Source: Escherichia coli
Lineage (GTDB): Bacteria; Pseudomonadota; Gammaproteobacteria; Enterobacterales; Enterobacteriaceae
Length of the DNA stretch: 64,000 nucleotides
Direction: 5' to 3' (one strand)
NCBI RefSeq assembly: GCF_024502345.1
Contig: NZ_JALDNN010000001.1
The position numbers and the translations under genes were made by a program. Below, one piece after another: positions 28,130 to 57,090 of this stretch (positions are counted from its first letter, which is position 1; the number at the start of each line of letters is the position of its first letter). The notes beneath the pieces are model-generated. The model worked only from the letters and a program-made list of their open reading frames with translations. It was not told the origin of the DNA and made no database searches.

Positions 28130-30067
28130 TCAGTAACGACGTCCCCATTCCGTGGCGCTCATCAACGTCGGTTTATCCCCCATGAAATAGCGGTAGTAAG
28201 CGTCATAAGCCAGCACGTTCTTCACATAACCACGCGTCTCGGAGAACGGAATACTCTCGACAAATGCCACTGCGTCGATACGCCCGGCGCTGTTGCCAAG
28301 CCAGGTTCGCACCCGTCCAGGTCCGGCGTTATAAGCCGCTGAGGAGAAAATACGGTTATTACCAAATTGCTGATAAACATATTGCAGGTAACTGGTGCCA
28401 ATGTTGATATTCGTTTCCGGATCCAGCAATTGCCCAGGGCTGCTATAACCAGGAATAGAGAACATCTTCACCGTATGGGTCGCCGTGCCCGGCATAATCT
28501 GCATCAGGCCGCTGGCCCCTACCGGTGATTTCACTTTCGGATTCCAGGCGCTCTCCTGACGGGCAATCGCCATCGCATAGCTTTGCGGGATCTCCTTCCC
28601 ACTGGTGTAACGTTTGAAAAGATCGTTGTAAGCCAGCGGGAATCGCTCTTCCAGATGATCCCACAGCTTCCCGGCGATCGTTGCCTGAACGCTAAGATCC
28701 CACCATTGGTTGTTGAAAGCATACCGCGCCAGTTGAGCCTGCTCTGTTTTTGACTTGCTCTTCACCAGATTGGCCCACTCGCTACGCGCGGTGTTATCGA
28801 GATTCCAGTACATCAACTCGCGCACGCGCGCCATCTCCGGCCCCTGAGTCAGGGCGCTGTCAACATTCTGCGGCGCTTTATCAATCTTCAGCTCATACTC
28901 TTCGCCGATGCGTTGTGCTGCAACCATCGGGTAGAAACCACGCTGTTGCATGAGTTGATGCAAAATCTCTTTTGCTTCAGCTTCACGTCCGCGTTCCAGC
29001 AATAAATCCGCCTGCCAGTAACGCCATTCATCTTTCTCTTTCGCCTCCATCGGCAAACGCGCCAGCCAGGTATTCAGGCCGCGACGATCGCCAGTGCCAA
29101 GCGCCATGCGCACACGGCGTTCAATAAGCGAAGTAGATTGCGAGCGCATAATGGCGTCATCGCGCCATTTCGCCTGCTCGTCGGTGACATCGTTGCCCAT
29201 CAAACGCCAGGCGACGATATCGCGCAGCTCCTGAATCTGATCTTCATTAAGCTGCTGCGCCTGGGCAAGCGATGGGATCATCAGCCGTGCATTCTCAGCA
29301 TCCTGCCGCGCCACACTGGCAAACGCCACCGCCGCCATTTGACGGGTAAAATCGGTCGCGCCAGTTGTACGCGCGAAGGTCAGTACCGTATTAGGGTTGT
29401 TCGCCAGTGAAATGATTGCCGAGGCGATAGTCTGGTAATCGGCAGGCATCTGCCCTGCCAGCACTGTTACCAGGCCTGTGTTACCCGCTTTCATCGCCAG
29501 ACGGATACGCTCTAAATACGCCAGCGGATCTTGTTTACCTGACGCACGCCAGACGCTAAATAACTTGTCACAGGCGTTAGGCTGGCTCTTGCCGGTTAGC
29601 CACAGCTCTTTCGCCCCTTGCCAGGCTTCTTCACTCTGCCCGGTGTTCCATTTCGCATAGTAGTAATTACATTGCGCTTCGGTAGTTCCGGGCTTTTCCG
29701 GGCTAAAGGCTAACAAGCCACGCCAGTCTTCACGCCGCGCCAGTTCATTGACGAAACGAGATTGCAGCGTGCGAGCGGGAGGAAGCGTGGGGTTAGCGCG
29801 AACAAAGTTAGTGACCGTCACCGCCGGTTGATTCATCAGATCATCGGTGATCTGGCGGTATTCCAGGTAGGGATAAAGCGGATAATCCTTCAGTCCAGGC
29901 ATCATTTGTTCGACCACATCCATTTGTCGATTATCCCAGGCCTGCTTGATTTGCGCGTAACGGCTACGCTGCTCATCCAGTGAGTCGGCTCGCGCTACGC
30001 TGCTGACCGTCAGCAGACAGACACCGGTAGCCAACAGCCGCCAGGTAACTTGTTTGGCTTTTTCCAC
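28130..30067 (-). CDS. slt: Soluble lytic murein transglycosylase Slt70
   Basis: 645-aa product from MEKAKQVTWRLLA...; the track ORF is a 10-codon extension. Confidence 0.95.
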   Translation of the reverse strand: MEKAKQVTWRLLATGVCLLTVSSVARADSLDEQRSRYAQIKQAWDNRQMDVVEQMMPGLKDYPLYPYLEYRQITDDLMNQPAVTVTNFVRANPTLPPARTLQSRFVNELARREDWRGLLAFSPEKPGTTEAQCNYYYAKWNTGQSEEAWQGAKELWLTGKSQPNACDKLFSVWRASGKQDPLAYLERIRLAMKAGNTGLVTVLAGQMPADYQTIASAIISLANNPNTVLTFARTTGATDFTRQMAAVAFASVARQDAENARLMIPSLAQAQQLNEDQIQELRDIVAWRLMGNDVTDEQAKWRDDAIMRSQSTSLIERRVRMALGTGDRRGLNTWLARLPMEAKEKDEWRYWQADLLLERGREAEAKEILHQLMQQRGFYPMVAAQRIGEEYELKIDKAPQNVDSALTQGPEMARVRELMYWNLDNTARSEWANLVKSKSKTEQAQLARYAFNNQWWDLSVQATIAGKLWDHLEERFPLAYNDLFKRYTSGKEIPQSYAMAIARQESAWNPKVKSPVGASGLMQIMPGTATHTVKMFSIPGYSSPGQLLDPETNINIGTSYLQYVYQQFGNNRIFSSAAYNAGPGRVRTWLGNSAGRIDAVAFVESIPFSETRGYVKNVLAYDAYYRYFMGDKPTLMSATEWGRRY

Positions 30068-30277
30068 AAGCGCATCCTCTAAGTGTAAATACATCAATGC
30101 AGCGTCATGCCGCGTAATAGATTTATGCTAACCAGTCATTGCCGTTTACGCCACGTTACGGACACTTTTTTACTTTTACTGCGAAGGTGATCGACCAACT
30201 GGGATTAGGCGGGGAAAAAGGCTACACTTCGCCTTTGAAAACTCATCATCACGATAAACATAGAGGCGAAGTCCAAC

Positions 30278-31945
30278 GTGGCTCAATTCGTTTATACCAT
30301 GCATCGTGTCGGCAAAGTTGTTCCGCCGAAACGTCATATTTTGAAAAACATCTCTCTGAGTTTCTTCCCTGGGGCAAAAATTGGTGTCCTGGGTCTGAAC
30401 GGCGCGGGTAAGTCCACCCTGCTGCGCATTATGGCGGGCATTGATAAAGACATCGAAGGTGAAGCGCGTCCGCAGCCAGACATCAAGATTGGTTACCTGC
30501 CGCAGGAACCGCAGCTGAACCCGGAACACACCGTGCGTGAGTCCATTGAAGAAGCGGTTTCTGAAGTGGTTAACGCCCTGAAACGCCTGGATGAAGTGTA
30601 TGCGCTGTACGCCGATCCGGATGCCGATTTTGACAAGCTGGCCGCTGAACAAGGCCGTCTGGAAGAGATCATTCAGGCTCACGACGGTCATAACCTGAAC
30701 GTACAGCTGGAGCGTGCGGCGGATGCGCTGCGTCTGCCGGACTGGGACGCGAAAATCGCTAACCTCTCCGGTGGTGAGCGTCGTCGCGTGGCGTTGTGCC
30801 GCCTGCTTCTGGAAAAACCAGACATGCTGCTGCTCGACGAACCGACCAACCACCTGGATGCCGAATCCGTGGCCTGGCTGGAACGCTTCCTGCACGACTT
30901 CGAAGGCACCGTTGTGGCGATTACTCACGACCGTTACTTCCTCGATAACGTTGCAGGCTGGATCCTCGAACTTGACCGCGGTGAAGGTATTCCGTGGGAA
31001 GGCAACTACTCCTCCTGGCTGGAGCAGAAAGATCAGCGCCTGGCGCAGGAAGCTTCACAAGAAGCGGCGCGTCGTAAGTCGATCGAGAAAGAGCTGGAGT
31101 GGGTACGTCAGGGAACTAAAGGCCGCCAGTCGAAAGGTAAAGCACGTCTGGCACGCTTTGAAGAGCTGAACAGCACCGAATATCAGAAACGTAACGAAAC
31201 CAACGAACTGTTTATTCCACCTGGACCGCGTCTGGGTGATAAAGTGCTGGAAGTCAGCAACCTGCGTAAATCCTACGGTGATCGCCTGCTGATTGATGAC
31301 CTGAGCTTCTCGATCCCGAAAGGGGCAATCGTCGGGATCATCGGTCCGAACGGCGCGGGTAAATCGACCCTGTTCCGTATGATCTCTGGTCAGGAACAGC
31401 CGGACAGCGGCACCATCACTTTGGGTGAAACAGTGAAACTGGCATCGGTTGATCAGTTCCGTGACTCAATGGATAACAGCAAAACCGTTTGGGAAGAAGT
31501 TTCCGGCGGGCTGGATATTATGAAGATCGGCAACACCGAGATGCCAAGCCGCGCCTACGTTGGCCGCTTTAACTTTAAAGGGGTTGATCAGGGTAAACGT
31601 GTTGGCGAACTTTCCGGTGGTGAGCGCGGTCGTCTGCATCTGGCGAAGCTGCTGCAGGTTGGCGGCAACATGCTGCTGCTCGACGAACCAACCAACGACC
31701 TGGATATCGAAACCCTGCGCGCGCTGGAAAACGCCCTGCTGGAGTTCCCGGGCTGTGCGATGGTTATCTCGCACGACCGTTGGTTCCTCGACCGTATCGC
31801 CACGCACATCCTGGACTACCAGGATGAAGGTAAAGTTGAGTTCTTCGAAGGTAACTTTACTGAGTACGAAGAGTACAAGAAACGCACGCTGGGCACAGAC
31901 GCACTGGAGCCGAAGCGTATCAAGTACAAGCGTATTGCGAAGTAA
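30278..31945 (+). CDS. ettA: ABC-F translational throttle EttA (YjjK)
   Basis: 555-aa, GTG start, two ABC ATPase cassettes (GLNGAGKST, LSGGERRRV). Confidence 0.96.
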   Translation: MAQFVYTMHRVGKVVPPKRHILKNISLSFFPGAKIGVLGLNGAGKSTLLRIMAGIDKDIEGEARPQPDIKIGYLPQEPQLNPEHTVRESIEEAVSEVVNALKRLDEVYALYADPDADFDKLAAEQGRLEEIIQAHDGHNLNVQLERAADALRLPDWDAKIANLSGGERRRVALCRLLLEKPDMLLLDEPTNHLDAESVAWLERFLHDFEGTVVAITHDRYFLDNVAGWILELDRGEGIPWEGNYSSWLEQKDQRLAQEASQEAARRKSIEKELEWVRQGTKGRQSKGKARLARFEELNSTEYQKRNETNELFIPPGPRLGDKVLEVSNLRKSYGDRLLIDDLSFSIPKGAIVGIIGPNGAGKSTLFRMISGQEQPDSGTITLGETVKLASVDQFRDSMDNSKTVWEEVSGGLDIMKIGNTEMPSRAYVGRFNFKGVDQGKRVGELSGGERGRLHLAKLLQVGGNMLLLDEPTNDLDIETLRALENALLEFPGCAMVISHDRWFLDRIATHILDYQDEGKVEFFEGNFTEYEEYKKRTLGTDALEPKRIKYKRIAK

Positions 31946-31951
31946 TGCGTA

Positions 31952-32105
31952 AAATGCCGGATGCGGCGTGAACGCCTTATCCGGCCTACAAACCAAGAAA
32001 TTTCAATACGTTGTGAATCTCCAGGCCTGATAAGACGCGGTAAGCGTCGCATCAGGCATTGAGCACCGAATGCCGGATACGGCGTGAACGCCTTTTCCGG
32101 CCACA
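31952..32105. repeat. REP/BIME palindromic repeat units
   Basis: tgccggatgcggcgtgaacgccttatccggcctaca and related units. Confidence 0.8.
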
Positions 32106-32250
32106 ACAGCCTTAGTATCCGCAATTTCGTAGCGGGTCACCCGTGCAGGTTTTTTCAAACCTTGTTTAATCTCGACAGCCTCTTCCAGAGAGGTTTTCAA
32201 CTCATCAAAAAACTTATTTTATACCTCGCCTTTGAGCCGTTTCATCGCGG

Positions 32251-33483
32251 TTATCTCTGCTCCCCCATCATCTCCCGCACCAGCTCCACGCAGCGCAGGA
32301 AACGGCTGTCATAATCGTCCTCTTCAACCCGCACGAATTCGATATTGTTCTCTTCCAGCATCTCCACCAGCAAGTTCTGGAACTCTTTGCGATCCACCGA
32401 ACTGCCGAGGCTGCGTAAACCATCCGCCACCCACGGCGTGTTGTTCTCCAGCAGGATCACCAGATCGAAACGGTATTCATCAATCAACGCCTGTACGAAC
32501 GGATGCTCACGCCCTTCGTACTTTTTGCAGAACGCCTGGGTAGTGACAAAATCAGTGTCAATAAACGCCACTTTATTGGCATATTTCACTGCAAAATCAA
32601 TGTATTGTGCGTGGCCCAGCGCGATTTTATCGTAATCGGAATACTGCAATGCGATCTCATCACCGCCGAGGTGTGAAAAGACATAATCGCGACCATATTC
32701 CCACGCACTGGTGGTATTGAAGATATTGGCAAGTTTGTTTACCAGGGTGGATTTACCGCTCGACTCGCCACCAAGGATCGCCACGGTACGTACAAAGAAC
32801 GGCTTCACTTCCGTAGGAATATATTCCCAGTAGCGGAACGGGTTTTCGCGGATCTGCGCACCGCTGATACTCATAAAGGTACGTTTCGGATCGACCAGCA
32901 CCGTCTCGATCCCCAGATGTTCCATATACTGTGGCGCATCGGCTTCTTCCGAGGTGTAGATCAGGTCCGGCTGAATCCCCTTTTCAGCCATAAACTTTTT
33001 GATGCCGTTGCTCCACACATCCCAGCCGTGCGGATACGGCTCCATGCCCTCTTCGTTGAAAGCATGAATGCGAATATTTTTCTGATATTTAAAAGTTTGC
33101 AATAACCAGCGCAGACGATCCGGCACGGTCGGCTGCTGCGACATGGCACTGTCTTCGAACAACGCGCGGTCACGGGTATCGTCAAAACCCATAATGATAT
33201 GCAGCTCGTCAACCTGGCTACAGGCGCGCTGGATAAGGTAGATATGTCCGGTATGCAGTGGGTAGAACTTACCGAATACCACACCAATGGTTTTCTTCTG
33301 CCGGGGAAACTCAAGCCCCAAAAAACGGTGCAACGCCTCCAGCTTTTGCGCGCTGGGGCTTTTGATTTTGGCATTCAGTAACTGGCTTAAATACCCTTTG
33401 GTCATACCGCTGGCATCAGCTACCTGCTGTAGCGTGCAGCCCTGTTGCTTGATGGCAGTTTTCAGGTAATCAAATGACGACAT
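32251..33483 (-). CDS. nadR: Trifunctional NAD biosynthesis/regulator NadR
   Basis: 410-aa from MSSFDYLKTAIKQQGCTLQQVADASG... Confidence 0.95.
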   Translation of the reverse strand: MSSFDYLKTAIKQQGCTLQQVADASGMTKGYLSQLLNAKIKSPSAQKLEALHRFLGLEFPRQKKTIGVVFGKFYPLHTGHIYLIQRACSQVDELHIIMGFDDTRDRALFEDSAMSQQPTVPDRLRWLLQTFKYQKNIRIHAFNEEGMEPYPHGWDVWSNGIKKFMAEKGIQPDLIYTSEEADAPQYMEHLGIETVLVDPKRTFMSISGAQIRENPFRYWEYIPTEVKPFFVRTVAILGGESSGKSTLVNKLANIFNTTSAWEYGRDYVFSHLGGDEIALQYSDYDKIALGHAQYIDFAVKYANKVAFIDTDFVTTQAFCKKYEGREHPFVQALIDEYRFDLVILLENNTPWVADGLRSLGSSVDRKEFQNLLVEMLEENNIEFVRVEEDDYDSRFLRCVELVREMMGEQR

Positions 33484-33503
33484 ATCTCCCTCCGTATTTC
33501 TCA

Positions 33504-34886
33504 TTATAAGTCGTCGAACACGCTAAGCGCGTCGGAGAGTTTTTTAACGCCAAAAATCTGCATCCCTTCCGGCGCTTTTTTCGGTACGTTAGCCGCCGGA
33601 ACAATCGCCCGGCGAAAACCGTGTTTCGCCGCTTCAGAGATTCGTTCCTGACCGCTGGGCACCGGGCGGATCTCCCCTGCCAGCCCGACTTCACCAAACA
33701 CCACCAGATCCTGCGGCAGCGGTCTGTCACGCAGGCTGGAAACCATCGCCAGCAGTAACGCTAAATCAGCGCTGGTTTCGGTCACCTTAACGCCGCCGAC
33801 CACGTTCACAAACACATCCTGATCGGCCATTTGCAGACCACCGTGACGGTGCAACACAGCCAGCAGGATTGCCAGACGGTTTTGTTCCAGCCCCACTGCC
33901 ACGCGGCGTGGGTTCGCCATCATCGAGTGATCGACCAGCGCCTGAATCTCCACCAGCAGTGGACGCGTTCCTTCCCATACCACCATCACTGAGCTACCGG
34001 AGGTCACTTCATCGCCGCGGCTTAAGAAAATTGCCGAAGGGTTGCTGACTTCACGCAGCCCCTGTTCGGTCATCGCGAAGACGCCCAGCTCATTCACCGC
34101 GCCGAAGCGGTTTTTATGGCTGCGCAAGGTGCGAAAACGGGAGTCGGCATCGCCATCCAAAAGCACCGAACAGTCGATACAGTGTTCCAGCACTTTCGGG
34201 CCAGCCAGCGAACCATCTTTGGTTACGTGCCCCACCATGACAATCGCCACACCGCGCGTTTTGGCGAAGCGTGTCAAATAAGCCGCTGTTTCACGCACCT
34301 GCGCCACGCTACCAGGCGATGACTGTACATCCGCCATATGCATCACCTGGATCGAGTCAATTACCATCAGCTTCGGTTGCTCTTCTTCGGCAATCAGGCA
34401 GATCTGTTCGATGCTGGTTTCCGACAACATATTGAGATTGTCAGTCGGCAGGCCAAGGCGATGAGCGCGCATTGCCACCTGTTGCAGCGACTCTTCGCCG
34501 GTGACATACAGCGTTTTCATCTGCTGGGCCAGTTTGCACAGCGTTTGCAGTAGCAGCGTGGATTTCCCCGCACCAGGGTTACCGCCAATCAGAATGGCAC
34601 TTCCTGGCACCACGCCGCCGCCTAGTACGCGGTCGAACTCTTTAAATCCGGTGGAAAAACGCGGCAGCTCTTCAAGGCTGATATCGGAGAGTTTCTGGAC
34701 TTTTGCCACCCCGGCGCTACCGGCATAGCCGCTGAGACGCTCGTTACGCGCCACCGTTGGCGACGCAGCAAGACGCACCTCGGTGATGGTGTTCCAGGCA
34801 TGACAGGCACTGCACTGCCCCTGCCAGCGCGGATAATCGGCCCCGCATTCATTACAAACAAAGGCGCGTTTTGGAGCTTTTGCCAC
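33504..34886 (-). CDS. radA: DNA repair protein RadA (Sms)
   Basis: 460-aa from GTG start (M)AKAPKRAFVCNECGADYPRWQGQCSAC...; Walker A GNPGAGKST. Confidence 0.95.
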   Translation of the reverse strand: MAKAPKRAFVCNECGADYPRWQGQCSACHAWNTITEVRLAASPTVARNERLSGYAGSAGVAKVQKLSDISLEELPRFSTGFKEFDRVLGGGVVPGSAILIGGNPGAGKSTLLLQTLCKLAQQMKTLYVTGEESLQQVAMRAHRLGLPTDNLNMLSETSIEQICLIAEEEQPKLMVIDSIQVMHMADVQSSPGSVAQVRETAAYLTRFAKTRGVAIVMVGHVTKDGSLAGPKVLEHCIDCSVLLDGDADSRFRTLRSHKNRFGAVNELGVFAMTEQGLREVSNPSAIFLSRGDEVTSGSSVMVVWEGTRPLLVEIQALVDHSMMANPRRVAVGLEQNRLAILLAVLHRHGGLQMADQDVFVNVVGGVKVTETSADLALLLAMVSSLRDRPLPQDLVVFGEVGLAGEIRPVPSGQERISEAAKHGFRRAIVPAANVPKKAPEGMQIFGVKKLSDALSVFDDL

Positions 34887-34934
34887 GGTGTACCTCGTTA
34901 ATGCTGTGCCGCCCGCAGGATGGCGGGCGAGCAA

Positions 34935-35903
34935 TTACTTCTGATTCAGGCTGCCTGAGAGGATGCAGAATACCCCCATCAGGTCAGCGTGACGGATGGT
35001 GACTTCCGCCTTTTCATTCACTTTTGGCTTGGCATGGTAGGCAATCCCCAGCCCTGCCGCTTTGATCATCGGCAGGTCATTGGCTCCATCGCCAATCGCC
35101 ACGGTCTGCGCCAGCGGGATTTCATACTCCTGCGCGAGGCGAGTCAGAGTTTTCGCTTTGTACTGCGCGTCTACGATGTCGCCGATCACATTGCCGGTAA
35201 ATTTACCGTCCATGATCTCCAGTTCATTGGCTACCACGGCTGTCAGGCGCAGCTTGTCGCGCAGGTATTCAGCAAAGAAAGTAAAGCCGCCGGAGGCAAT
35301 CGCCACTTTCCAGCCCAGCGTTTCCAGCTTGAGCACCAGTTGCGTTAAGCCTGGCATCAGCGGCAGATTTTCACGCACCTGTTGCAGAATATTGGCGTCA
35401 GCGCCTTTCAGCGCCGCCACACGGCTGCGCAGGCTGGCGGTAAAATCGAGTTCGCCGCGCATCGCCCGTTCGGTTACTTCCGCCACCATCTCGCCCGTTC
35501 CGGCCAGTTTGGCAATTTCATCAATACATTCAATCTGGATGGCGGTGGAATCCATGTCCATCACCAGCAAACCCGGCGTGCGCAGGTGCGGGATTTTCCC
35601 CAGCGGGGCGACATCCAGTTGCGCTTCATGGGCCAGGCGCGTAGCCCGTGCGGTGAGTGAACCTGCCAGACGAATCACCTGATAATCTTCCACGCACCAG
35701 GCGGCAACAATCACCATCGCCGCACCCAGTTTGCTCTGGTATTGGGTCAGACGCTGTTTATCCAGCCCACGACCATACAGCAGCCAGCCGCTACGACCTG
35801 CGTGGTAATCCAGTGGCATCACTTCATCACCACTTAATGAAAGAGGCAGACCCGGCCATAAAGAGACATCTTCAGGCAGGTCGCACCAGGTAATGTTAGG
35901 CAT
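34935..35903 (-). CDS. serB: Phosphoserine phosphatase
   Basis: 322-aa from MPNITWCDLPEDVSLWPGLPLSLSGDEVMPLDY... Confidence 0.95.
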   Translation of the reverse strand: MPNITWCDLPEDVSLWPGLPLSLSGDEVMPLDYHAGRSGWLLYGRGLDKQRLTQYQSKLGAAMVIVAAWCVEDYQVIRLAGSLTARATRLAHEAQLDVAPLGKIPHLRTPGLLVMDMDSTAIQIECIDEIAKLAGTGEMVAEVTERAMRGELDFTASLRSRVAALKGADANILQQVRENLPLMPGLTQLVLKLETLGWKVAIASGGFTFFAEYLRDKLRLTAVVANELEIMDGKFTGNVIGDIVDAQYKAKTLTRLAQEYEIPLAQTVAIGDGANDLPMIKAAGLGIAYHAKPKVNEKAEVTIRHADLMGVFCILSGSLNQK

Positions 35904-36008
35904 TAAGGCTCCTGTAAAATCGTTCGAAGCAGGGAAAATAACGCATGAGGCTACCTTGTATCCATTGCTTCTGGCAACATTAAGTCTCAAATTTTCAAAG
36001 GGTGGAAG

Positions 36009-36653
36009 ATGGCTCGCACAAAACTGAAATTCCGGCTGCATCGGGCAGTGATTGTCCTGTTCTGTCTTGCCTTGTTAGTGGCGCTGATGCAGGGGGCGTC
36101 ATGGTTTAGTCAAAACCACCAGCGACAGCGTAATCCACAGCTGGAAGAACTGGCCCGCACCCTGGCGCGTCAGGTGACGCTGAACGTTGCACCGCTGATG
36201 CGTACCGACTCACCGGATGAAAAACGCATTCAGGCGATCCTCGATCAGTTAACGGATGAAAGCCGTATCCTCGACGCGGGTGTGTATGACGAACAAGGCG
36301 ATCTTATCGCACGTTCTGGCGAAAGCGTCGAAGTGCGCGACCGGCTGGCGCTCGACGGTAAAAAAGCGGGCGGTTATTTTAACCAGCAGATTGTCGAACC
36401 AATTGCCGGGAAAAACGGACCGCTCGGTTATCTGCGCCTGACGCTCGACACCCATACGCTCGCCACCGAAGCCCAACAGGTGGATAACACCACTAACATT
36501 TTACGCCTGATGTTGCTGCTCTCACTGGCAATCGGCGTAGTGCTGACCCGCACGCTGCTACAGGGTAAACGTACCCGCTGGCAGCAATCGCCCTTCCTGT
36601 TAACCGCCAGCAAACCGGTGCCGGAAGAGGAAGAAAGCGAGAAAAAAGAGTGA
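36009..36653 (+). CDS. ytjB: Membrane protein YtjB (Smp)
   Basis: 214-aa MARTKLKFRLHRAVIVLFCLALLVALMQG... Confidence 0.9.
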   Translation: MARTKLKFRLHRAVIVLFCLALLVALMQGASWFSQNHQRQRNPQLEELARTLARQVTLNVAPLMRTDSPDEKRIQAILDQLTDESRILDAGVYDEQGDLIARSGESVEVRDRLALDGKKAGGYFNQQIVEPIAGKNGPLGYLRLTLDTHTLATEAQQVDNTTNILRLMLLLSLAIGVVLTRTLLQGKRTRWQQSPFLLTASKPVPEEEESEKKE

Positions 36654-36680
36654 CCCATTACTACAAGAAAGGAAATCGTT

Positions 36681-37697
36681 ATGTCCACATTACGCCTGCT
36701 CATCTCTGACTCTTACGACCCGTGGTTTAACCTGGCGGTGGAAGAGTGTATTTTTCGCCAAATGCCCGCCACGCAGCGCGTTCTGTTTCTCTGGCGCAAT
36801 GCCGACACGGTAGTAATTGGTCGCGCGCAGAACCCGTGGAAAGAGTGTAATACCCGGCGGATGGAAGAAGATAACGTCCGCCTGGCGCGGCGCAGTAGCG
36901 GTGGCGGCGCGGTGTTCCACGATCTCGGCAATACCTGCTTTACCTTTATGGCTGGCAAGCCGGAGTACGATAAAACCATCTCCACGTCGATTGTGCTCAA
37001 TGCGCTGAACGCGCTCGGCGTCAGCGCCGAAGCGTCCGGACGTAACGATCTGGTGGTGAAAACCGCCGAAGGCGACCGCAAAGTCTCAGGATCGGCCTAT
37101 CGCGAAACCAAAGATCGTGGCTTCCACCACGGCACCTTGCTGCTCAATGCCGACCTTAGCCGCCTGGCAAACTATCTCAACCCAGATAAAAAGAAACTGG
37201 CGGCGAAAGGCATTACCTCAGTGCATTCCCGCGTGACCAACCTCACCGAGCTGCTGCCGGGGATCACCCATGAGCAGGTTTGCGAGGCCATAACCGAGGC
37301 CTTTTTCGCCCATTATGGCGAGCGCGTGGAAGCGGAAATCATCTCCCCGGACAAAACGCCAGACTTGCCAAACTTCGCCGAAACCTTTGCCCGCCAGAGT
37401 AGCTGGGAGTGGAACTTCGGTCAGGCTCCGGCATTCTCGCATCTGCTGGATGAACGCTTTAGCTGGGGCGGCGTGGAACTGCATTTCGACGTTGAAAAAG
37501 GCCATATCACCCGCGCCCAGGTGTTTACCGACAGCCTCAACCCCGCGCCGCTGGAAGGCCTCGCCGGGCGACTGCAAGGCTGCCTGTACCGCGCGGATAT
37601 GCTGCAACAAGAGTGCGAAGCGCTGTTGGTTGACTTCCCGGACCAGGAAAAAGAGCTACGGGAGTTGTCGACGTGGATAGCGGGGGCGGTAAGGTAA
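36681..37697 (+). CDS. lplA: Lipoate-protein ligase A
   Basis: 338-aa [55 protein letters not shown]... Confidence 0.96.
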
Positions 37698-37728
37698 CTC
37701 GCTGATTAAAATACCAAAGGAAGGGAAT

Positions 37729-37992
37729 ATGATCGATCTGGAAAACCAAGAGCGGGAGATTATCAATTTAATGTTAAGCCAGCGTATTTCCTGGCTAGCC
37801 GCCGTGCGTATCAGGCATAAATTATCGCTTGCTGAAGTAAGTAAAATGTTAGGTATCTCGATTAATTCTCTAAAATAGATCGAAAAGACGGAACGGTTTA
37901 GCTCAAACATCAAAAGCAAAATGGCAGAAATTTATGGTTGTCCACCAGAGTTGCTGATATGCCCTTCCTGGATGACGGCTGAACATAAATGA
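37729..37992 (+). pseudogene. Small XRE-type HTH gene interrupted by an in-frame TAG codon (37876-37878)
   Basis: Strong RBS aaaggaagggaatATG; MIDLENQEREIINLMLSQRISWLAAVRIRHKLSLAEVSKMLGISINSLK*IEKTERFSSNIKSKMAEIYGCPPELL...; occupies the slot where K-12 has yjjJ/hipH. Confidence 0.5.
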
Positions 37993-38090
37993 ATAGATTC
38001 GTGAATAGATACTTGAATGTATTTTATTTTCTATCCATATGAAAAATAATAGTAAATCTATAAATCAGTTGCTATTGATGAATAGATACT
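37988..38090. repeat. Three copies of the motif TGAATAGATAC
   Basis: atgaatagatt, gtgaatagatac and gatgaatagatac within about 100 bp. Confidence 0.6.
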
Positions 38091-38120
38091 AAAAAGCCGG
38101 AGCAGTCTCCCGCTCCGGCT
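38091..38120 (-). terminator. Rho-independent terminator downstream of deoD
   Basis: gccggagcagtctcccgctccggc hairpin with a T run on the minus strand. Confidence 0.75.
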
Positions 38121-38152
38121 TAACACAACAATCGTCTTTCAGCGAAACACAA

Positions 38153-38872
38153 TTACTCTTTATCGCCCAGCAGAACGGATTCCAGTGCGATTTTGATCAT
38201 GTCGTTGAAGGTGGTCTGACGCTCAGCGGCAGTGGTTTGCTCGTGAGTGCGGATGTGGTCAGACACGGTGCAGATGGTCAGGGCTTTCGCGCCAAACTCT
38301 GCAGCCACGCCGTAGATACCAGCCGCTTCCATTTCCACGCCGAGAATGCCGTATTTTTCCATCACGTCGAACATTTCGCCGTCCGGAGAGTAGAACAGGT
38401 CAGCGGAGAACAGGTTACCCACGCGAGCATCAACGCCCAGTGCTTTAGCCGCGTCTACCGCGTTACGCACCATGTCAAAGTCAGCGATAGCGGCAAAGTC
38501 ATGATCTTTAAAACGGATGCGGTTAACTTTGGAATCGGTGCAGGCACCCATACCGATAACGACGTCGCGCAGTTTTACGTGCGGCAGAACTGCGCCACAG
38601 GAACCCACGCGGATAATTTTCTTCACGCCGAAATCGGTGATCAGTTCTTTGGTGTAGATGGAGCAGGACGGGATACCCATACCGTGACCCATTACGGAAA
38701 TTTTGCGGCCTTTGTAAGTACCGGTGAAGCCCAGCATACCGCGAACGTTGTTCACTTCACGGGCATCTTCAAGGAAAGTTTCAGCAATATACTTCGCACG
38801 CAGCGGGTCGCCTGGCATCAAAACTACGTCAGCGAAATCGCCCATTTCTGCATTAATGTGTGGGGTAGCCAT
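38153..38872 (-). CDS. deoD: Purine nucleoside phosphorylase DeoD
   Basis: 239-aa [51 protein letters not shown]... Confidence 0.97.
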
Positions 38873-38951
38873 TGTTTTATCCTTATCAACATGTTTTCAC
38901 CCTCTCCCTGTGGGAGAGGGCCGGGGTGAGGGCATCAAGCCGCACCCATTA

Positions 38952-40196
<1,245 letters not shown>

Positions 40197-40226
40197 TCAA
40201 ATTTAAATGATCAGATCAGTATACCG

Positions 40227-41549
40227 TTATTCGCTGATACGGCGATAGACAGTTGGTGTGCTTTCCGGTGCTTTATCGGCAAGTTTAATTGCCGCTTTCA
40301 CCGCTTTCGCCGCTTCCTGCCAGCTGTTTTCGTCTTTCGCGTGGATAACCGCCAGCGGACGCTGACCGTCTACCTGGTCGCCCAGACGCGCCATATCAGT
40401 AAAGCCGACGCTGTAATCGATGGTGTCAGATGCCTGACGGCGTCCACCGCCCATTGCAACCACTGCCATCCCCAGCGCGCGGGTATCCATTTCACTGACA
40501 AAACCTTCGGTATCAGCATAGACTGCTTTCGTCAGCATCGCTGTCGGCAGATACTTCGCGTAGTTCTCAACGAAGTCGGTCGGGCCTTTTTGTGCCGCTA
40601 CCATACGACCAAAGACTTCTGCCGCTTTACCGTTGTCCAGCACCGCCTGCAATTTCGCGCGCGCTTCGGCGTCATCTTTCGCCAGTTTGCCGGAGATCAG
40701 CATCTCCACGCACAGCGCCATCGTGACATCAAACAGACGCGGGTTACGATATTCACCCGTCAGGAACTGCACCGCTTCACGAACTTCAACCGCGTTACCT
40801 GCACTGGAGGCCAGCACCTGATTCATATCGGTGAGCAGCGCGGTGGTGCGCACGCCAGCGCCGTTAGCCACGCCAACAATCGCTTCGGCAAGGGCTTCAG
40901 AGAGTTCGTAGGTCGGCATAAACGCGCCGCTACCCACTTTCACGTCCATCACCAGCGCATCCAGACCTTCCGCAAGTTTCTTCGCCAGAATAGAGGCGGT
41001 GATCAGCGGGATGGAGTCCACGGTTGCGGTAATATCACGGGTCGCGTAGAAACGTTTATCCGCCGGAGCCAGTGAGCTGGTCTGACCGATAATCGCCACG
41101 CCGACGTCTTTAATAATTTCGCGGAAACGGTTGTCATCCGGGAAAATGTCGAAGCCAGGGATGGATTCCAGTTTGTCTAGCGTACCGCCAGTATGACCGA
41201 GGCCACGACCGGAGATCATCGGAATATAGCCGCCGCAGGCAGCGACCATCGGCCCCAACATCAGCGAAGTGACATCGCCGACGCCACCGGTGGAGTGTTT
41301 ATCAACAATCGGTCCATTCAGATGCAGGCTTTTCCAGTCGAGAACGGTTCCTGAATCTCGCATCGCCATGGTCAGCGAGACACGCTCAGGCATTGTCATA
41401 TCGTGGAAGAAAATGGTCATCGCGAGGGCGGCAATCTGCCCTTCGGAGATAGTGTTGTCGCGAATACCGTTGATAAAGAAACGAATTTCTTCATCGCTCA
41501 GCGCATGACCATCACGTTTTTTACGAATAATTTCTTGTGCGAGAAACAA
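40227..41549 (-). CDS. deoA: Thymidine phosphorylase DeoA
   Basis: 440-aa, TTG start, (M)[40 protein letters not shown]... Confidence 0.96.
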
Positions 41550-41580
41550 GGTAACCTCCCGAGGAAAAGAGTATGAGGCG

Positions 41581-41670
41581 GCTTTTGCCGGATGCGTCTA
41601 CGCCTTATCCGGCCTACGGGTAGATACGTCTCGTAGGCCTGATAAGCGCAGCGCATCAGGCGTAAAGCAT
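41581..41670. repeat. REP palindromic repeat units
   Basis: gccggatgcgtctacgccttatccggcctacg and gtaggcctgataagcgcagcgcatcaggcg. Confidence 0.8.
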
Positions 41671-41675
41671 CTTAC

Positions 41676-42455
41676 TTAGTAGCTGCTGGCGCTCTTACCG
41701 TCGCCGTGGCCCAGCGCTTTCAGCAGGCTTGCCAGCAGGCTGGAAGCGCCAAAGCGGTAGTGACGCGCATCTGCCCAGTCAGCACCGAACAGTTCATCTG
41801 CGATGGCGAGATATTTCTGCGCATCTTCCGCAGTACGCACGCCGCCCGCCGGTTTGAAACCAACGTTTTTTTCTACGCCCATATCACGGATCACTTCCAT
41901 CATGATCCGCGCGCTTTCCGGCGTCGCGTTCACTGCCACTTTACCGGTAGAGGTTTTGATGAAGTCAGCACCCGCTTTGATGGAGATTTCAGACGCTTTG
42001 CGGATCAGCGCTTCGTCTTTCAGTTCGCCGGTTTCGATGATCACTTTCAGCAGTACATTCGCTGCCGCGCAAGCCTCTTTACAGGCTTTCACCAGGTCAA
42101 AACCAACCTGCTCGTTACCCGCCATCAGCGCGCGGTACGGGAACACAACGTCAACTTCATCAGCACCGTAGGCGATTGCCGCACGGGTTTCTGCCAGCGC
42201 GATTTCGATGTCGTCGTTACCGTGTGGGAAGTTGGTTACCGTAGCAATACGGATTTCCGGGGTGCCCTGCTCTTTCAGTGTCTTGCGAGCAATCGGGATA
42301 AAGCGAGGATAGATACAGATAGCGGCGGTATTGCCGACCGGCGTTTTGGCCTGATGACACAGGGCGATCACTTTCTCGTCGGTGTCGTCGTCATTCAGGG
42401 TGGTCAGGTCCATCAATTTCAGTGCACGCAGGCTGCTTGCTTTCAGATCAGTCAT
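41676..42455 (-). CDS. deoC: Deoxyribose-phosphate aldolase DeoC
   Basis: 259-aa from [39 protein letters not shown]... Confidence 0.96.
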
Positions 42456-42712
42456 TTCATTCTCCTGGCTTGTCGCCAATAAAATTCACCTTGCGAGTTT
42501 GTTAGTATTCTAACATCTACTCCGCAACACACTTCGATACACATCACAATTAAGGAAATCTACTTACAAGTTTGCATCACTGTAATGCGATCTGGTTCAA
42601 ATAATTCACTTTCAAATGAATGCGTCAGTGGTGGCAAACGCATCAGGATCAAAGTGAACATCACGAAACTTCTTACAATGGCGCATCACCTTCGGCATAA
42701 AAGGAAAAGAAG

Positions 42713-44263
42713 ATGCCCACTTCTCATGAAAATGCACTGCAACAACGTTGCCAGCAAATTGTCACCAGCCCAGTGCTTAGCCCGGAGCAGAAGCGCCATT
42801 TTCTGGCACTGGAAGCAGAAAACAATCTGCCTTACCCACAGCTTCCTGCCGAAGCCCGCCGCGCGCTGGATGAAGGTGTAATCTGCGATATGTTTGAAGG
42901 TCATGCGCCGTACAAACCGCGCTATGTCTTACCCGATTACGCCCGTTTTCTGGCGAACGGTTCCGAATGGCTGGAGCTGGAAGGCGCGAAAGATCTTGAT
43001 GACGCACTCTCTCTGCTGACCATTCTTTACCACCACGTACCGTCGGTCACATCGATGCCGGTCTACCTGGGGCAACTGGATGCGTTGTTGCAACCGTATG
43101 TTAGAATTCTAACACAAGACGAGATCGATCTTCGAATAAAACGTTTCTGGCGTTACCTCGACAGAACCCTGCCAGACGCCTTTATGCACGCCAATATCGG
43201 CCCGTCTGATTCGCCTATTACCCGCGCGATCTTACGTGCAGACGCAGAGTTGAAGCAGGTTTCACCGAACCTGACCTTTATCTACGATCCTGAAATCACC
43301 CCTGATGACCTGCTGCTGGAAGTGGCGAAGAACATCTGTGAATGTAGCAAACCGCACATCGCCAACGGTCCGGTGCATGATAAAATTTTCACAAAAGGGG
43401 GCTACGGGATTGTGAGCTGTTACAACTCACTGCCGCTGGCTGGTGGTGGCAGCACGCTGGTACGCCTTAACCTGAAAGCCATTGCCGAGCGCAGCGAATC
43501 GCTGGATGACTTCTTTACGCGCACTCTACCGCACTACTGCCAGCAGCAGATCGCCATCATCGATGCGCGGTGTGAATTCCTCTATCAACAATCACACTTC
43601 TTTGAGAATAGCTTCCTGGTGAAAGAAGGGCTGATTAACCCTGAACGTTTTGTGCCAATGTTTGGCATGTATGGGCTGGCGGAAGCGGTTAACTTGCTGT
43701 GTGAGAAAGAAGGGATTGCCGCGCGCTACGGTAAAGAAGCCGCCGCAAATGAAGTGGGTTATCGCATCAGCGCGCAACTGGCGGAGTTTGTCGCCAATAC
43801 CCCCGTGAAATATGGCTGGCAAAAACGCGCCATGTTACACGCACAGTCGGGGATCAGTTCCGATATCGGCACCACGCCGGGCGCGCGTTTGCCGTATGGC
43901 GATGAGCCAGATCCGATCACCCATCTGCAAACTGTCGCCCCGCATCATGCTTATTATTATTCCGGCATCAGCGACATTCTGACGCTCGACGAAACCATCA
44001 AACGTAACCCGCAGGCACTGGTACAGCTTTGCCTCGGTGCCTTTAAAGCCGGAATGCGTGAATTTACTGCCAATGTCAGCGGTAACGATCTGGTTCGCGT
44101 TACCGGTTATATGGTGCGTTTGTCGGATTTAGAAAAATATCGCGCCGAAGGTTCACGCACCAACACCACCTGGCTGGGCGAAGAAGCCGCACGCAACACT
44201 CGTATTCTGGAACGCCAGCCGCGCGTGATAAGCCATGAACAGCAGATGCGCTTTAGTCAGTAA
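42713..44263 (+). CDS. yjjI: YjjI, glycine-radical-enzyme-like protein (DUF3029)
   Basis: 516-aa ORF; position and length match K-12 yjjI. Confidence 0.88.
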
Positions 44264-45098
44264 GATTATCCCCTTCTCCTGCGTTGACGGGCCAGGCAGT
44301 CGTCTGGCTCTGTTTTTGCAGGGCTGCAATCTGCGCTGCAAAAACTGTCACAATCCGTGGACGATGGGACGCTGCAATGATTGCGGAGAGTGCGTGCCAC
44401 AGTGTCCGCATCAGGCGTTGCAGATTGTTGACGGCAAAGTGCTGTGGAACGCTGTGGTCTGCGAGCAATGTGATACCTGCCTGAAGAGGTGTCCGCAACA
44501 TGCCACGCCAATGGCGCAATCCATGAGCGTGGATGAGGTGCTTAGCCATATCCGCAAAGCGGTGCTGTTTATTGAAGGGATAACGGTAAGCGGCGGCGAA
44601 GCCACGACCCAACTGTCGTTTGTAGTGGCGCTATTTACAGCCATCAAAAACGATCCGCAACTGCGCCACCTCACCTGCCTCGTGGACAGTAACGGTATGT
44701 TGAGCGAAACCGGCTGGGAAAAATTACTCCCGGTGTGCGACGGCGCGATGCTCGATCTCAAAGCGTGGGGGAGCGAATGTCATCAGCAATTAACCGGACG
44801 CGATAATCAGCAGATTAAGCGCAGCATCTGTTTGCTGGCAGAGCGCGGTAAGCTGGCGGAACTGCGTTTGCTGGTAATTCCAGACCAGGTGGATTATTTG
44901 CATCACATCGATGAGCTGGCGACGTTTATCAAGAGACTTGGCGATGTTCCGGTTCGCCTGAATGTGTTTCATGCCCACGGCGTGTATGGCGAGGCGCAAA
45001 GCTGGGCGAGCGCCACGCCGGAAGACGTTGAGCCGTTGGCTGATGCGTTAAAGGTGCGCGGGGTGAGCCGGTTGATATTTCCGGCGCTCTATTTGTGA
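44235..45098 (+). CDS. yjjW: YjjW, radical-SAM glycyl-radical activating enzyme
   Basis: 287-aa; CxxxCxxC cluster (CNLRCKNC) plus additional Cys motifs; overlaps the yjjI end. Confidence 0.88.
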
Positions 45099-45100
45099 CA

Positions 45101-45285
45101 TGCCGGATACGGCCTACGGTTCGGCACAAACCTGTAGGCATGATAAGACGCGTCAAGCGTCGCATCAGGCATTGTGCGCCAACTGCCGGATGCGGCGTGA
45201 ACGCCTTATCCGGCCTACGGTTCGGCACAAACCTGTAGGCATGATAAGACGCGACAAGCGTCGCATCAGGCATTATGCGCCGACT
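45101..45285. repeat. Tandem duplication of a REP/BIME unit (period about 101 bp)
   Basis: cctacggttcggcacaaacctgtaggcatgataagacgcg[t/a]caagcgtcgcatcaggcatt[g/a]tgcgcc occurs at about 45113 and 45214. Confidence 0.85.
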
Positions 45286-45311
45286 GCCGGATGCTGCCTA
45301 CGAAGGGCAAA

Positions 45312-46094
45312 CTACCCACGAACGTTAAACACCGCATACGTGTTATTAAGCAACACTTCGGCAATCTCATCCGCCGGTTCCCGGCGCAACTCGCAAAGCA
45401 CGTCAAACACCCGCGCAGCCTGTTCCGGGCGGTTAGGCTGCCCTTGAAAGCCGTTGAGCGGCATATCCGGCGCGTCGGTTTCCAGCAACAACGATGCCAG
45501 CGGTAATTTTGCGATGACATCGCGGGTTTTACTGGCGCGTGGATAGGTGATAGTACCGCCTACGCCGATTTTGTAGCCCAGCTGTACAAACCGCTCGGCC
45601 TGTTGCAGGCTGCCGGAAAAACCGTGAACCACGCCAGTGCGCGATAAATCGTGGCGTTTAAGATGCATCGCCAGTTTGTCGTGTGTGCGCCGTGAATGCA
45701 GGATCACCGGCAGATCGTAGCGTTTCGCCAGTTTCAGTTGTTCGTCGAGTAACCACTGCTGCCTCTCAAATTGCGGATCGTCGCCGAAGAGATCCAGACC
45801 GATCTCCCCCACCGCCACCACCTTCGCCGGACGCCTTTCCAGCGCCTGCTGTAGCTGATCAAGAGACACATCGCTATGTTTTTCCAACATCCCCGGATGC
45901 AACCCCAATGCGGCATACAGCGGTTGATATTTTTCCGCTAACGCCTGCACGCGGGCAAAATTTTCCGCCTCTGTCGCCGGAACAATGATCTTGCCTACAC
46001 CCGCTTGTGCCGCGCGTTGCAGGCTGGCCTCTTCATCGCCACTAAACGGCGGAAAATCAAAATGGCAGTGGGTGTCGATAAAACGGCAAATCAA
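45312..46094 (-). CDS. yjjV: TatD-family metal-dependent hydrolase YjjV
   Basis: 260-aa MICRFIDTHCHFDFPPF... (HxH metal motif). Confidence 0.9.
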   Translation of the reverse strand: MICRFIDTHCHFDFPPFSGDEEASLQRAAQAGVGKIIVPATEAENFARVQALAEKYQPLYAALGLHPGMLEKHSDVSLDQLQQALERRPAKVVAVGEIGLDLFGDDPQFERQQWLLDEQLKLAKRYDLPVILHSRRTHDKLAMHLKRHDLSRTGVVHGFSGSLQQAERFVQLGYKIGVGGTITYPRASKTRDVIAKLPLASLLLETDAPDMPLNGFQGQPNRPEQAARVFDVLCELRREPADEIAEVLLNNTYAVFNVRG

Positions 46095-50293: not shown

Positions 50294-50346
50294 TGCAGCA
50301 ATCTTTGTTCTATTGACACTGTTTATTCATACAGTTAAAAATAACA

Positions 50347-50362
50347 CTGTATACAAACACAG
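50347..50362 (+). promoter_or_regulatory. LexA (SOS) box upstream of the dinI-like gene
   Basis: ctgtatacaaacacag = CTGT-N8-ACAG, 16 bp upstream of the start codon. Confidence 0.75.
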
Positions 50363-50377
50363 TGTAGAGGGATTTTT

Positions 50378-50626
50378 ATGCGTATTGAGATCTGCATAGC
50401 CAAAGAGAAAATGACTAAAATGCCAAACGGTGCTGTGGATGCGTTAAAGGAAGAATTAACTCGACGCATCAGTAAGCGTTATGACGATGTAGAGGTGATC
50501 GTAAAAGCCACCAGCAACGATGGCCTTTCTGTTACGCGCACCGCCGATAAAGATTCAGCTAAAACTTTTGTTCAGGAAACTCTGAAAGATACCTGGGAGT
50601 CTGCTGACGAGTGGTTTGTTCACTAA
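50378..50626 (+). CDS. DinI-family DNA-damage-inducible protein
   Basis: 82-aa [31 protein letters not shown]...[15 protein letters not shown]; C-terminus resembles DinI (QETWESADDWF). Confidence 0.85.
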
Positions 50627-51052
50627 TTAACACGTAAAATCGGTAACGGCTGGAAATCATTCAATACTCGCACTATCGGAAGTTCACCAGCCAACCGCAG
50701 CACGTTCTTGCATACGACGTGTCTGCGGTTTTTCAACCATTCAGATACAGCACTCTCATCACATTCATTCTTCCGCATTAAAGTATATATGACCATATCA
50801 CCTTAATATTTTTCTTCTTCAGATAAAAATTGTTATCTATGTATACTTTTAAACCGAATCCGTGTAGAGTCTCTACCTAAGTTAGTTCGCAGCTACCCCT
50901 TCAGTTTGCGCCATTAACCTCCTGACTTTTGCCGCTATCTGTAAGCATTCCTGTATACCTGAAACTACAGGGTTCATCTACGAACTTTAAGAACACCCAG
51001 GATAAAAATTGTCAACTATATTATATATAACACCATACTAATTCGAGGCTAT

Positions 51053-51166
51053 ATGAACAGCATACTGATAATCACTTCACTACTTATCATATTCAGCATT
51101 TTTGGTCATGCTCTAATAAAATTAGGGATTGGCATATCCAATAACCCGGACAAAACCGATGTATAA
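51053..51166 (+). CDS. Hypothetical 37-aa hydrophobic peptide
   Basis: [37 protein letters not shown]; GAGG 5 nt upstream of the ATG; promoter-like AT-rich element upstream. Confidence 0.35.
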
Positions 51167-51234
51167 GTCAACATATCCTGAATCAGACATACAATATTGC
51201 AATGAAAACCAATAATATTTTAAGGAATATCTTC

Positions 51235-51468
51235 ATGAAATCAAAAGACACCCTAAAGTGGTTCCCTGCGCAGCTTCCTGAAGTCAGAATTATCCTGGGA
51301 GATGCTGTCGTGGAAGTAGCAAAACAGGGAAGACCTATCAATACCAGAACATTGCTTGATTACATTGAAGGAAACATAAAGAAAAAGTCATGGCTGGATA
51401 ACAAAGAATTATTACAAACAGCGATATCAGTTCTTAAAGACAACCAAAATTTAAATGGTAAAGTGTAA
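51235..51468 (+). CDS. ydfK: YdfK/YnaE-family prophage protein (cold-shock-inducible family in K-12)
   Basis: 77-aa MKSKDTLKWFPAQLPEVRIILGDAVVEVAKQGRPINTRTLLDYIEG...; AGGAA RBS. Confidence 0.7.
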   Translation: MKSKDTLKWFPAQLPEVRIILGDAVVEVAKQGRPINTRTLLDYIEGNIKKKSWLDNKELLQTAISVLKDNQNLNGKV

Positions 51469-51847
51469 TACCTCCCCTGAAAAATAATTTTTCAATGCAT
51501 TAAAAAAATATCAACAACTACGTTATTCCGCAACAACCTACTTTTTTTACCATTTTTCCACTTTAACAACATTTTGCTCCACTTTTCCACGACCAAACAA
51601 CTTAAAATCTGGTTAAAATAACATACAACACTATTATTCGTCTTCCTCGAGTCCGCCCGGAGTTCGAAAAACAAACCGAGTTAAAGCCATTTTTCAAAAA
51701 ATCGATTTTTGGTTACACCAAAATTACGGGACTGCATCCGAATTCGTTTATTTTCGAACGTATACATACAAATATGTACAATAATAAGCGAAATAATTTT
51801 TGGATATGCATTATGATATGTACACCAATTTCGTATAGAGTCTCACT

Positions 51848-52438
51848 ATGTCTCGAATTTTTGCTTACTGTCGGATATCAACGCTGGATCAGACCCCCGA
51901 AAATCAACGCCGGGAAATCGAAAGTGCAGGTTTTAAAATCAAACCTCAGCAAATAATCGAAGAACACATTAGCGGCTCAGCAGCAACCAGTGAGCGTCCT
52001 GGTTTTAACCGGTTGCTTGCTCGCCTGAAATGTGGTGATCAATTGATTGTGACAAAACTGGATCGCCTTGGTTGTAATGCAATGGATATCAGGAAAACAG
52101 TGGAACAACTGACCGAAACAGGTATCAGAGTGCATTGCTTAGCATTGGGGGGCATTGACCTGACCAGTCCAACAGGAAAAATGATGATGCAAGTAATTTC
52201 AGCAGTCGCTGAATTTGAACGAGACCTTTTACTTGAACGCACTCATTCCGGGATAGTAAGAGCCCGGGGCGCAGGGAAACGTTTTGGTCGACCACCTGTG
52301 TTAAATGAAGAACAGAAACAGGTGGTATTCGAACGAATTAAGTCAGGTGTAAGTATAAGTGCCATTGCCCGGGAATTCAAAACCTCGCGGCAAACCATTT
52401 TAAGAGCCAAAGCAAAACTTCAGACACCTGACATATAA
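51848..52438 (+). CDS. pin: Serine recombinase, Pin-like DNA invertase (PinQ/PinR type)
   Basis: 196-aa [15 protein letters not shown]...; resolvase/invertase catalytic N-domain plus C-terminal HTH. Confidence 0.85.
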
Positions 52439-52535
52439 AAAATAATCTCGGTGTGAGATGCTTTACGTCTTCCAAGCCCCCTTCCTTGCCGTAAATGGAA
52501 AGATACATCTAATTATAGAATTTATATGTTTTACC

Positions 52536-53111
52536 CTACGGCAGTGCTGGCCATTCAATATCCTGTGCAGTTGACGTATCAACACGGTTCAGCAATACCC
52601 GATACTTTTTCCATGCTTCCAGCAACGAGATTTCTTCCTCCGTTGCAATTTCCAGATCTGCAGCATCCTGAAGCGGCGCAATATGCTCACTGGCTACCTG
52701 CATCAGGTTGTTTTTTGTTTCTTCCGCCTCCCGGATCCGGAACAGTTTTTCTGCTTCCGTATCCTTCACCCAGGCTGTGCCGTTCCACTTCTGAAACTCC
52801 CCTTCCGGGGATAACCAAGTGACATTTTCCGGTAATGGGCCAAGTTCAGAAATAAATAACGCGTCGCCGGAAGCCACGTCATAGACGGTTTTACCCCGAT
52901 GGTCTTCAACGAGATGCCACGATGCCTCATCACTGTTGAAAACAGCCACAAAGCCAGCCGGAATATCTGGCGGTGCAATATCGGTACTGTTTGCTGGCAG
53001 ACCTGTATGAGGTGGAATATATGCATCACCTTCACCAATAAATTCATTAGTTCCGGCCAGCAGATTATAAATTGTTATGGTCCGTGGTTGTTCACTCATT
53101 CTGAAATCCAT
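52536..53111 (-). CDS. tfa: Tail fibre assembly protein Tfa
   Basis: 191-aa from the ATG preceded by an AGGTG SD; ...[37 protein letters not shown]... as recalled for TfaQ/TfaR. Confidence 0.85.
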
Positions 53112-53119
53112 GTTCACCT

Positions 53120-54022: not shown

Positions 54023-54186
54023 GCAAGCCTCACAATATAGTTAAATGCGATGTTTTTGACGGTGTTTTCCGCGTTACCAGCAGCGTTAACGGTGATGGTG
54101 TGTCCATGTGACCCTATCGCAACGGAGTGCGTATGAGCACCAATACCGACAGTATGCGCGTGTGCACCTGCAGATACTGCTGTAAA
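54019..54186 (-). pseudogene. Side tail fibre (Stf) C-terminal fragment
   Basis: ...[51 protein letters not shown]; joined out of frame to the terminase fragment upstream. Confidence 0.7.
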
Positions 54187-55370: not shown

Positions 55371-55797
55371 CTCCTCTCCATAAGTCATCGATAAAAAGCG
55401 ATACAACAACCATGTGTTTTTACAAAACCATTTGATATCATTTAATTTTTTCACATTAATGACATCAAAGCACATCGTAAGGTTGTTGTATTTATTTTAT
55501 TTTCACCTTACTTATCAATTAGATATACCAAACAATTAAACAACAACCACCCCCTCAAAAAATCTCATAAATAGCGAAAAACCGCGAGGTCGCCGCCCCG
55601 TAACCTGTCGGATCGCCGGAAAGGACCCACAAAATGATAATAATTATCATCTACATATCACAACGTGCGTGTACGCCATCAAACCACGTCAAATAATCAA
55701 TTATGACGCAGGTATCGTATTAATTGATCCGCATCAACTTAACGTAAAAACAACTTCAGACAATACAAATCAGCGACACAGAATACGGGACAACCTC

Positions 55798-56918: not shown

Positions 56919-57090
56919 CATTTCCTCTTTTAGTCTGTTATGACTTTCCTGGTACACAGTAGTGTCAATTATATGGAGCAAACGTATAAAAGATAAGATG
57001 AAACATCGCAATAATCAACATACGACAGTCTAAATTTCGCACAAACAGATAAAGATGATTATCCTTTATTATCAAGGCATTAGAATGAAA

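Follow-up and report, generated by a model that had tools for sequence, protein, structure and literature searches.

The 264-nt open reading frame (ORF) found between lplA and deoD in the Escherichia coli DNA analysed here (a stretch of 64,000 nucleotides, hereafter the window) is, with a probability that we put at roughly 0.88, a null (nonsense) pseudogene allele of a small accessory helix-turn-helix (HTH) gene of the XRE/Cro-C1 type. In Escherichia, it is usually this HTH gene that occupies the space between lplA and deoD. One C-to-T change converted its codon for Gln50 (CAG) to amber, and translation would then end within the predicted recognition helix to yield a 49-residue fragment. Deprived of the rest of helix 3 and of helices 4-5, this fragment would not build the five-helix DNA-binding domain. 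The mutation appears to have arisen once; it is present in about 31% of the sequenced E. coli genomes and is one of several independent inactivations of the gene. The TAG allele is thus an ordinary, lineage-wide nonsense pseudogene that PGAP has already annotated.

The reading frame, its amber codon and the predicted fold

The ORF lies downstream from lplA (lipoate-protein ligase; 36681..37697, plus strand) and converges with deoD (purine nucleoside phosphorylase; 38153..38872, minus strand), the two neighbours being assigned from the ORF list and the RefSeq annotation of homologous loci. It fills the 455-bp gap between them, in agreement with the first-pass annotation, made from the window sequence alone, which had placed an HTH ORF with a strong ribosome binding site (RBS) in an interval of about 450 bp. 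A Shine-Dalgarno-like sequence, AAGGAAGGG (37717..37725, plus strand; read from the sequence), ends 3 nt 5′ of the ATG at 37729, and the start of the ORF is spaced by 31 nt from the end of lplA. No terminator-like site was found between lplA and the HTH gene, and the sole terminator-like element downstream from the latter is the G+C-rich hairpin of deoD at 38094..38121. The short spacing and the assignment of the only hairpin to deoD make co-transcription of the HTH gene with lplA probable. A search of the gap for RNA families returned just one sub-threshold snoRNA match, attributed to chance. The G+C content is 40.5% in the HTH ORF, 58% in lplA and 53% in deoD.

The region around the locus (window positions 30000-46000) has a best identity of 98.7-98.8% over 16 kb among 5426 complete E. 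coli genomes. The substitutions in lplA and deoD are mostly synonymous, which indicates that the sequence divergence is natural; the DNA probably comes from a lineage outside these 5426 genomes, possibly Shigella or an E. coli clade that is undersampled. Further along the window, collinearity with E. coli strain E2 stops just past prfC. The segment concerned (50328-64000) matches lambdoid prophage genes (among them ydfT antiterminator, KilA-N, Rha, DUF968, terminase and tail fibre), and none of the 5426 complete E. coli genomes searched covers 80% or more of it.

The HTH ORF (37729-37992, plus strand) has 87 codons, from the ATG at 37729 to a TGA at 37990-37992. Codons 1-49 (37729..37875) comprise everything that is translatable from the TAG allele. 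Codon 50 is an in-frame amber TAG (37876..37878), and codons 51-87 with the TGA (37879..37992) form an untranslated remainder that encodes the end of helix 3 and helices 4-5 and whose frame is still open. This reading of 49 sense codons, TAG, 37 sense codons and TGA is the one originally described from the sequence. RefSeq annotates an intact 87-amino-acid allele, the ‘helix-turn-helix domain-containing protein’ WP_000566150.1, in O157:H7 EDL933 as well as in other strains. The EDL933 gene is found at the same locus, as a 264-nt ORF with the flanks of the window, and differs from it in nothing essential. Its alignment with the window ORF places CAG (Gln) at codon 50, as the initial reading of the stop had supposed, with TAG resulting from a C-to-T change. 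Once codon 50 is restored, two residues of the translation (Leu16 and Phe57) distinguish it from WP_000566150.1, the second of which (Phe for Leu) is the sole difference in codons 51-87 relative to the intact O157 protein. The window ORF differs from that of the TAG carrier UTAK-1 by one nucleotide in 264, a synonymous CAA for CAG at codon 7, and five sites differ in the intergenic stretch downstream. A second lesion is absent from the ORF in both the window and UTAK-1, in a haplotype that is nearly invariant and therefore offers little diversity in which decay could be seen. The open downstream frame could reflect residual constraint, or else the youth of the haplotype, which recombination would then have spread.

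Two further features of the ORF sequence were noted. The C-to-T change that creates TAG also turns AACAGAT into AATAGAT at 37874-37880, which is the 7-nt core of a nearby 12-nt repeat; this is probably a coincidence. The RBS/start region (37718-37730) and codons 77-80 of the ORF (37957-37969) form an inverted repeat in which 12 of 13 nt are complementary. Sequestration of the RBS by this repeat was considered and set aside: the complementarity is weaker in EDL933 and absent from the orthologue in another genus (see below), and it is treated as probably due to chance.

The restored 87-amino-acid protein matches Pfam family PF01381 (HTH_3) over residues 23-76 with 28.5 bits against a gathering score of 23, which bears out its initial assignment as an XRE-type HTH protein. 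The 49-residue product scores 16.3 bits, below that cut-off. No NCBIfam model matched the HTH protein above its cut-offs, while PADLOC and PHROGs gave just generic ‘HTH’ or ‘transcriptional regulator’ matches. AlphaFold modelled the restored protein with a mean pLDDT of 87 and predicted helices at residues 4-18, 22-29, 34-41, 45-54, 59-69, 73-76 and 80-86; codon 50 falls within helix 45-54, the recognition helix of the model. The arrangement that characterizes the XRE/Cro-C1 helical bundle (helix 2, turn, helix 3) is seen in this model of the restored protein. Foldseek related this model to CylR2, the P22 c2 N-terminal domain and the SinR N-terminal domain with a probability of 1.0 and to C.AhdI with 0.99-1.0. 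The superpositions comprise 53-61 aligned columns with a TM-score of 0.54-0.59 and an rmsd of 1.5-2.4 Å; the alignment to C.AhdI chain A has 71 columns and an rmsd of 5.6 Å. CylR2 is also the sole match in the PDB at the sequence level, a weak one (E = 0.34). The E. coli protein shares with these XRE/Cro-C1 repressors the HTH_3 match and the helical bundle but differs from them by an extra N-terminal helix (4-18) and a C-terminal tail, with sequence identities of 19-30%. The intact protein is presumed to be a transcriptional regulator. Unlike those repressors, the product encoded in the window is cut at residue 49. Judging from the predicted model, the stop would remove half of the recognition helix together with helices 4-5, and we infer that the fragment is non-functional and the allele null.

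Frequency, origin and possible read-through of the TAG allele

The distribution of the HTH gene was established in the collection of 5426 complete E. coli genomes. Presence was scored with a 511-nt query spanning the gap, requiring a match over at least 80% of the query length, and codon-50 states were counted with exact 33-mers centred on that codon. The HTH gene, annotated ‘helix-turn-helix domain-containing protein’, occupies the lplA-deoD site in 4056 of the 5426 genomes (~75%). Codon 50 is TAG in 1690 genomes (~31% of the collection) and CAG in 2036; the recurrence of an identical TAG in so many genomes, alongside CAG at the same position in others, shows that the stop is neither a sequencing error nor a chance event. 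A 61-mer identical to that of the window, which includes the linked TTT codon responsible for the Leu57-to-Phe replacement, is present in 1685 genomes. A single origin of the TAG allele is thus likely, and its spread points to a fairly old one. The first-pass annotation had suggested a recent pseudogene as one possibility. The pseudogene part stands, supported by the orthologues with CAG and by the PGAP label (the TAG copies of UTAK-1 and E2, both among the closest matches of the window, are annotated as pseudogenes with an ‘internal stop’). Its recent age does not, in view of the 1690 carriers among 5426 genomes and of the 61-mer common to 1685 of them.

Nor is the stop a property of the family. 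Intact E. coli alleles have CAG, CAA or CGG as codon 50, and the orthologue from another genus has Arg there, which excludes the idea, raised together with the original description, that all orthologues might carry the same stop. The HTH gene is also disrupted in other ways. A 1-bp deletion at codon 63 (AAAAGC to AAAAG), labelled ‘frameshifted’ by PGAP, is found in 141 of the 5426 genomes and is a lesion independent of TAG. Disrupted copies (1690 with TAG and 141 with the frameshift) make up ~45% of the 4056 HTH genes. Inactivation on several independent occasions implies that the gene is dispensable in many lineages. Two 93-amino-acid E. coli variants (P0037 and P0042) have an unrelated carboxyl terminus after residue 57 (LREGANK...), suggestive of some insertion or rearrangement within the HTH gene in these strains.

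The first-pass annotation had also considered that the gene might be read through in an amber-suppressor background. Such a gene would be functional in the window owing to a suppressor tRNA such as supE, or to leaky termination. The frame that remains open for 37 codons past TAG in a haplotype devoid of a second lesion would fit with this, and the residue that supE inserts, Gln, is precisely the ancestral one. The distribution of the suppressor speaks otherwise. A search of the 5426 genomes with a 33-mer that recognizes the CUA-anticodon form of glnX (the supE-type allele) identified 157 genomes, nearly all of them K-12 laboratory derivatives (including C600, DH5alpha, DH1, JM109, XL1-Blue, TG1, HB101 and J53), and K-12-type genomes have yjjJ at the lplA-deoD site. 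TAG, on the other hand, is found in 1690 wild and clinical genomes. Since TAG occurs in natural isolates and glnX(CUA) is nearly limited to K-12 laboratory strains, a suppressor background does not explain a stop carried by so many natural isolates. In addition, no tRNA gene is present in the 64-kb window, and background read-through of UAG in wild-type E. coli is ~1% or less. Synthesis of a functional protein by read-through is accordingly most improbable, and we retain the nonsense pseudogene. The glnX(CUA) 33-mer was also found in porcine ETEC1738 (NZ_CP122768.1), an apparently natural isolate with a genome of 5.58 Mb.

Selective constraint, orthologues and distant relatives

The intact form of the HTH gene is under purifying selection. 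In a small sample of six intact alleles, 16 of the segregating changes are synonymous and 18 nonsynonymous, whereas the 54 synonymous and 207 nonsynonymous sites of the gene would lead one to expect ~21% synonymous changes in the neutral case (binomial p = 5e-4). The dN/dS values of allele pairs are mostly 0.12-0.26, compared to 0.01-0.1 for lplA.

The family is nearly confined to Escherichia. A scan of genome contigs for homologues in other species returned two Escherichia loci only, and an exhaustive HMMER search identified one true orthologue outside the genus, P0079, which is 87 amino acids long and 44% identical. Its contig, from another enterobacterium, codes for an LplA 88% identical immediately upstream and for the 3′ end of deoD downstream. 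A follow-up search with P0079 as query yielded no further orthologues. The exact conservation of length at 44% identity, between lplA and deoD, characterizes the HTH gene as one that evolves rapidly without changing its length and that also resides at this chromosomal position in at least one further lineage of enterobacteria.

These data bear on two other readings of the ORF. The first is that neither allele is a real gene, the frame being open by chance in AT-rich DNA between lplA and deoD and its stop being meaningless. The ORF is indeed short, AT-rich (its G+C content being far from that of lplA), often disrupted and of narrow taxonomic distribution. A chance frame would nevertheless have to account for the significant surplus of synonymous changes that the intact alleles display, for a score above the Pfam HTH_3 gathering threshold, for a confidently predicted fold and for an orthologue in another genus that has exactly 87 codons and the same position; we consider it hardly credible. 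The second is that the 49-residue amino-terminal product is itself functional and retained as a shortened micro-protein. In its favour, the TAG haplotype is widespread and near-invariant (1685 genomes with the 61-mer compared to 1690 with the TAG 33-mer), it keeps the strong RBS, and many assemblies have 49-amino-acid proteins predicted by gene callers (clusters P0053 and P0058). Yet this fragment stops in the middle of the predicted recognition helix, without helices 4-5, and scores below the HTH_3 cut-off, while the 87 codons are kept in all other lineages and in the other-genus orthologue. The loss by frameshift in other lineages fits with dispensability and not with a new function. A selected micro-protein is thus very unlikely, and a null allele of a dispensable regulator gene accounts better for the data.

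The nearest non-orthologous relatives of the HTH protein are P0081 and P0102 (43% and 35% identity, respectively, over residues 8-76). They are HTH antitoxins of ~130 amino acids paired with ParE/RelE-type toxins, composed of a weak RelB-like amino terminus and a carboxyl-terminal HTH; the P0102 gene directly follows a ParE_toxin gene. Their amino-terminal extension of ~55-60 residues starts with the weak RelB-like match (residues 3-30). What corresponds to residue ~55 of these relatives is the first residue of the E. coli protein, which therefore has no such segment in addition to the HTH that might neutralise a toxin. No toxin-like ORF was found in the 455-bp gap where an adjacent co-oriented toxin gene was sought, and the neighbours are lplA and deoD. 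With neither a toxin neighbour nor a RelB-like segment, the protein does not qualify as a type II (ParE/RelE-paired) antitoxin today, but it may have descended from an antitoxin-type HTH protein.

Two occupants of the lplA-deoD site

In K-12 the same chromosomal slot is occupied by yjjJ (hipH), which codes for a HipA-family kinase and lies on the opposite strand to the HTH gene (1.3 kb compared to 0.26 kb). yjjJ/HipH was described as monocistronic and as having its own N-terminal HTH (PMC8262856, PMC9948734). The small HTH gene is mentioned neither in these two publications nor in the results of a keyword literature search for the locus. It was rejected as a yjjJ remnant or an inverted copy of the yjjJ HTH domain, given its opposite orientation and a BLASTP E value of 1.6 against the first 100 residues of YjjJ; the same conclusion had been reached initially on the basis of strand alone. 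The comparison of the lplA-deoD interval across E. coli genomes, recommended with the original description, gave 1348 of the 5426 genomes (~25%) with yjjJ and 4056 with the HTH gene. The two genes are essentially mutually exclusive, together accounting for 5404 of the 5426 genomes (1348 + 4056).

The yjjJ-type and HTH-type alleles share a downstream segment with TGAATAGAT repeats and the deoD terminator. The breakpoint between the two types is positioned exactly at the yjjJ start codon, whose CAT (37984-37986) is kept in both alleles, and K-12 homology from this codon to deoD amounts to 80.7% identity. The ATG at 37984-37986 opens a 27-amino-acid ORF on the minus strand (37903-37986). Should the yjjJ promoter survive, the HTH gene would be transcribed from it in the antisense direction. 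Strain WB61 (NZ_CP020025.1) has just the 5′ 140 nt of yjjJ, annotated ‘transcriptional regulator’; it is a third, truncated state of the slot that keeps only the YjjJ HTH region.

Three tandem 12-nt units TGAATAGATNNN are found at 37990..38025, the first starting with the TGA stop codon of the HTH gene and the third being degenerate in the window (TGAATGTAT). A fourth copy, TGAATAGATACT (38079..38090), is located 77 nt further on, adjoins the terminator and is conserved in K-12. The window contains five exact TGAATAGAT 9-mers in its 64 kb, three of which are found here. The same 12-nt units are present in K-12, 3 nt upstream from the yjjJ start codon. The sequence between the units has diverged between K-12 and the window, and the number of tandem copies is two or three depending on the strain. 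The repeats may act as an operator or be left over from recombination. They can be accommodated in a more elaborate scheme in which lplA-deoD is a two-state regulatory locus and not a site of random insertion, the conserved TGAATAGAT repeats common to both types of allele being a candidate operator that either the small HTH protein or the HTH at the N terminus of HipH would read, and in which TAG, whose C-to-T change puts the repeat core AATAGAT inside the gene, would be a selected loss-of-regulator state. We regard this scheme as a distinctly long shot and keep to the plain nonsense pseudogene.

As such, the TAG case carries little weight for new biology. It illustrates how a gene that looks ‘interrupted’ can turn out to be a null allele, frequent and lineage-wide, and not a recent accident or a recoding event. 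The occupancy of the site shows that K-12 represents the minority state at lplA-deoD, which matters when the biology of YjjJ/HipH is extrapolated from K-12 to other strains.
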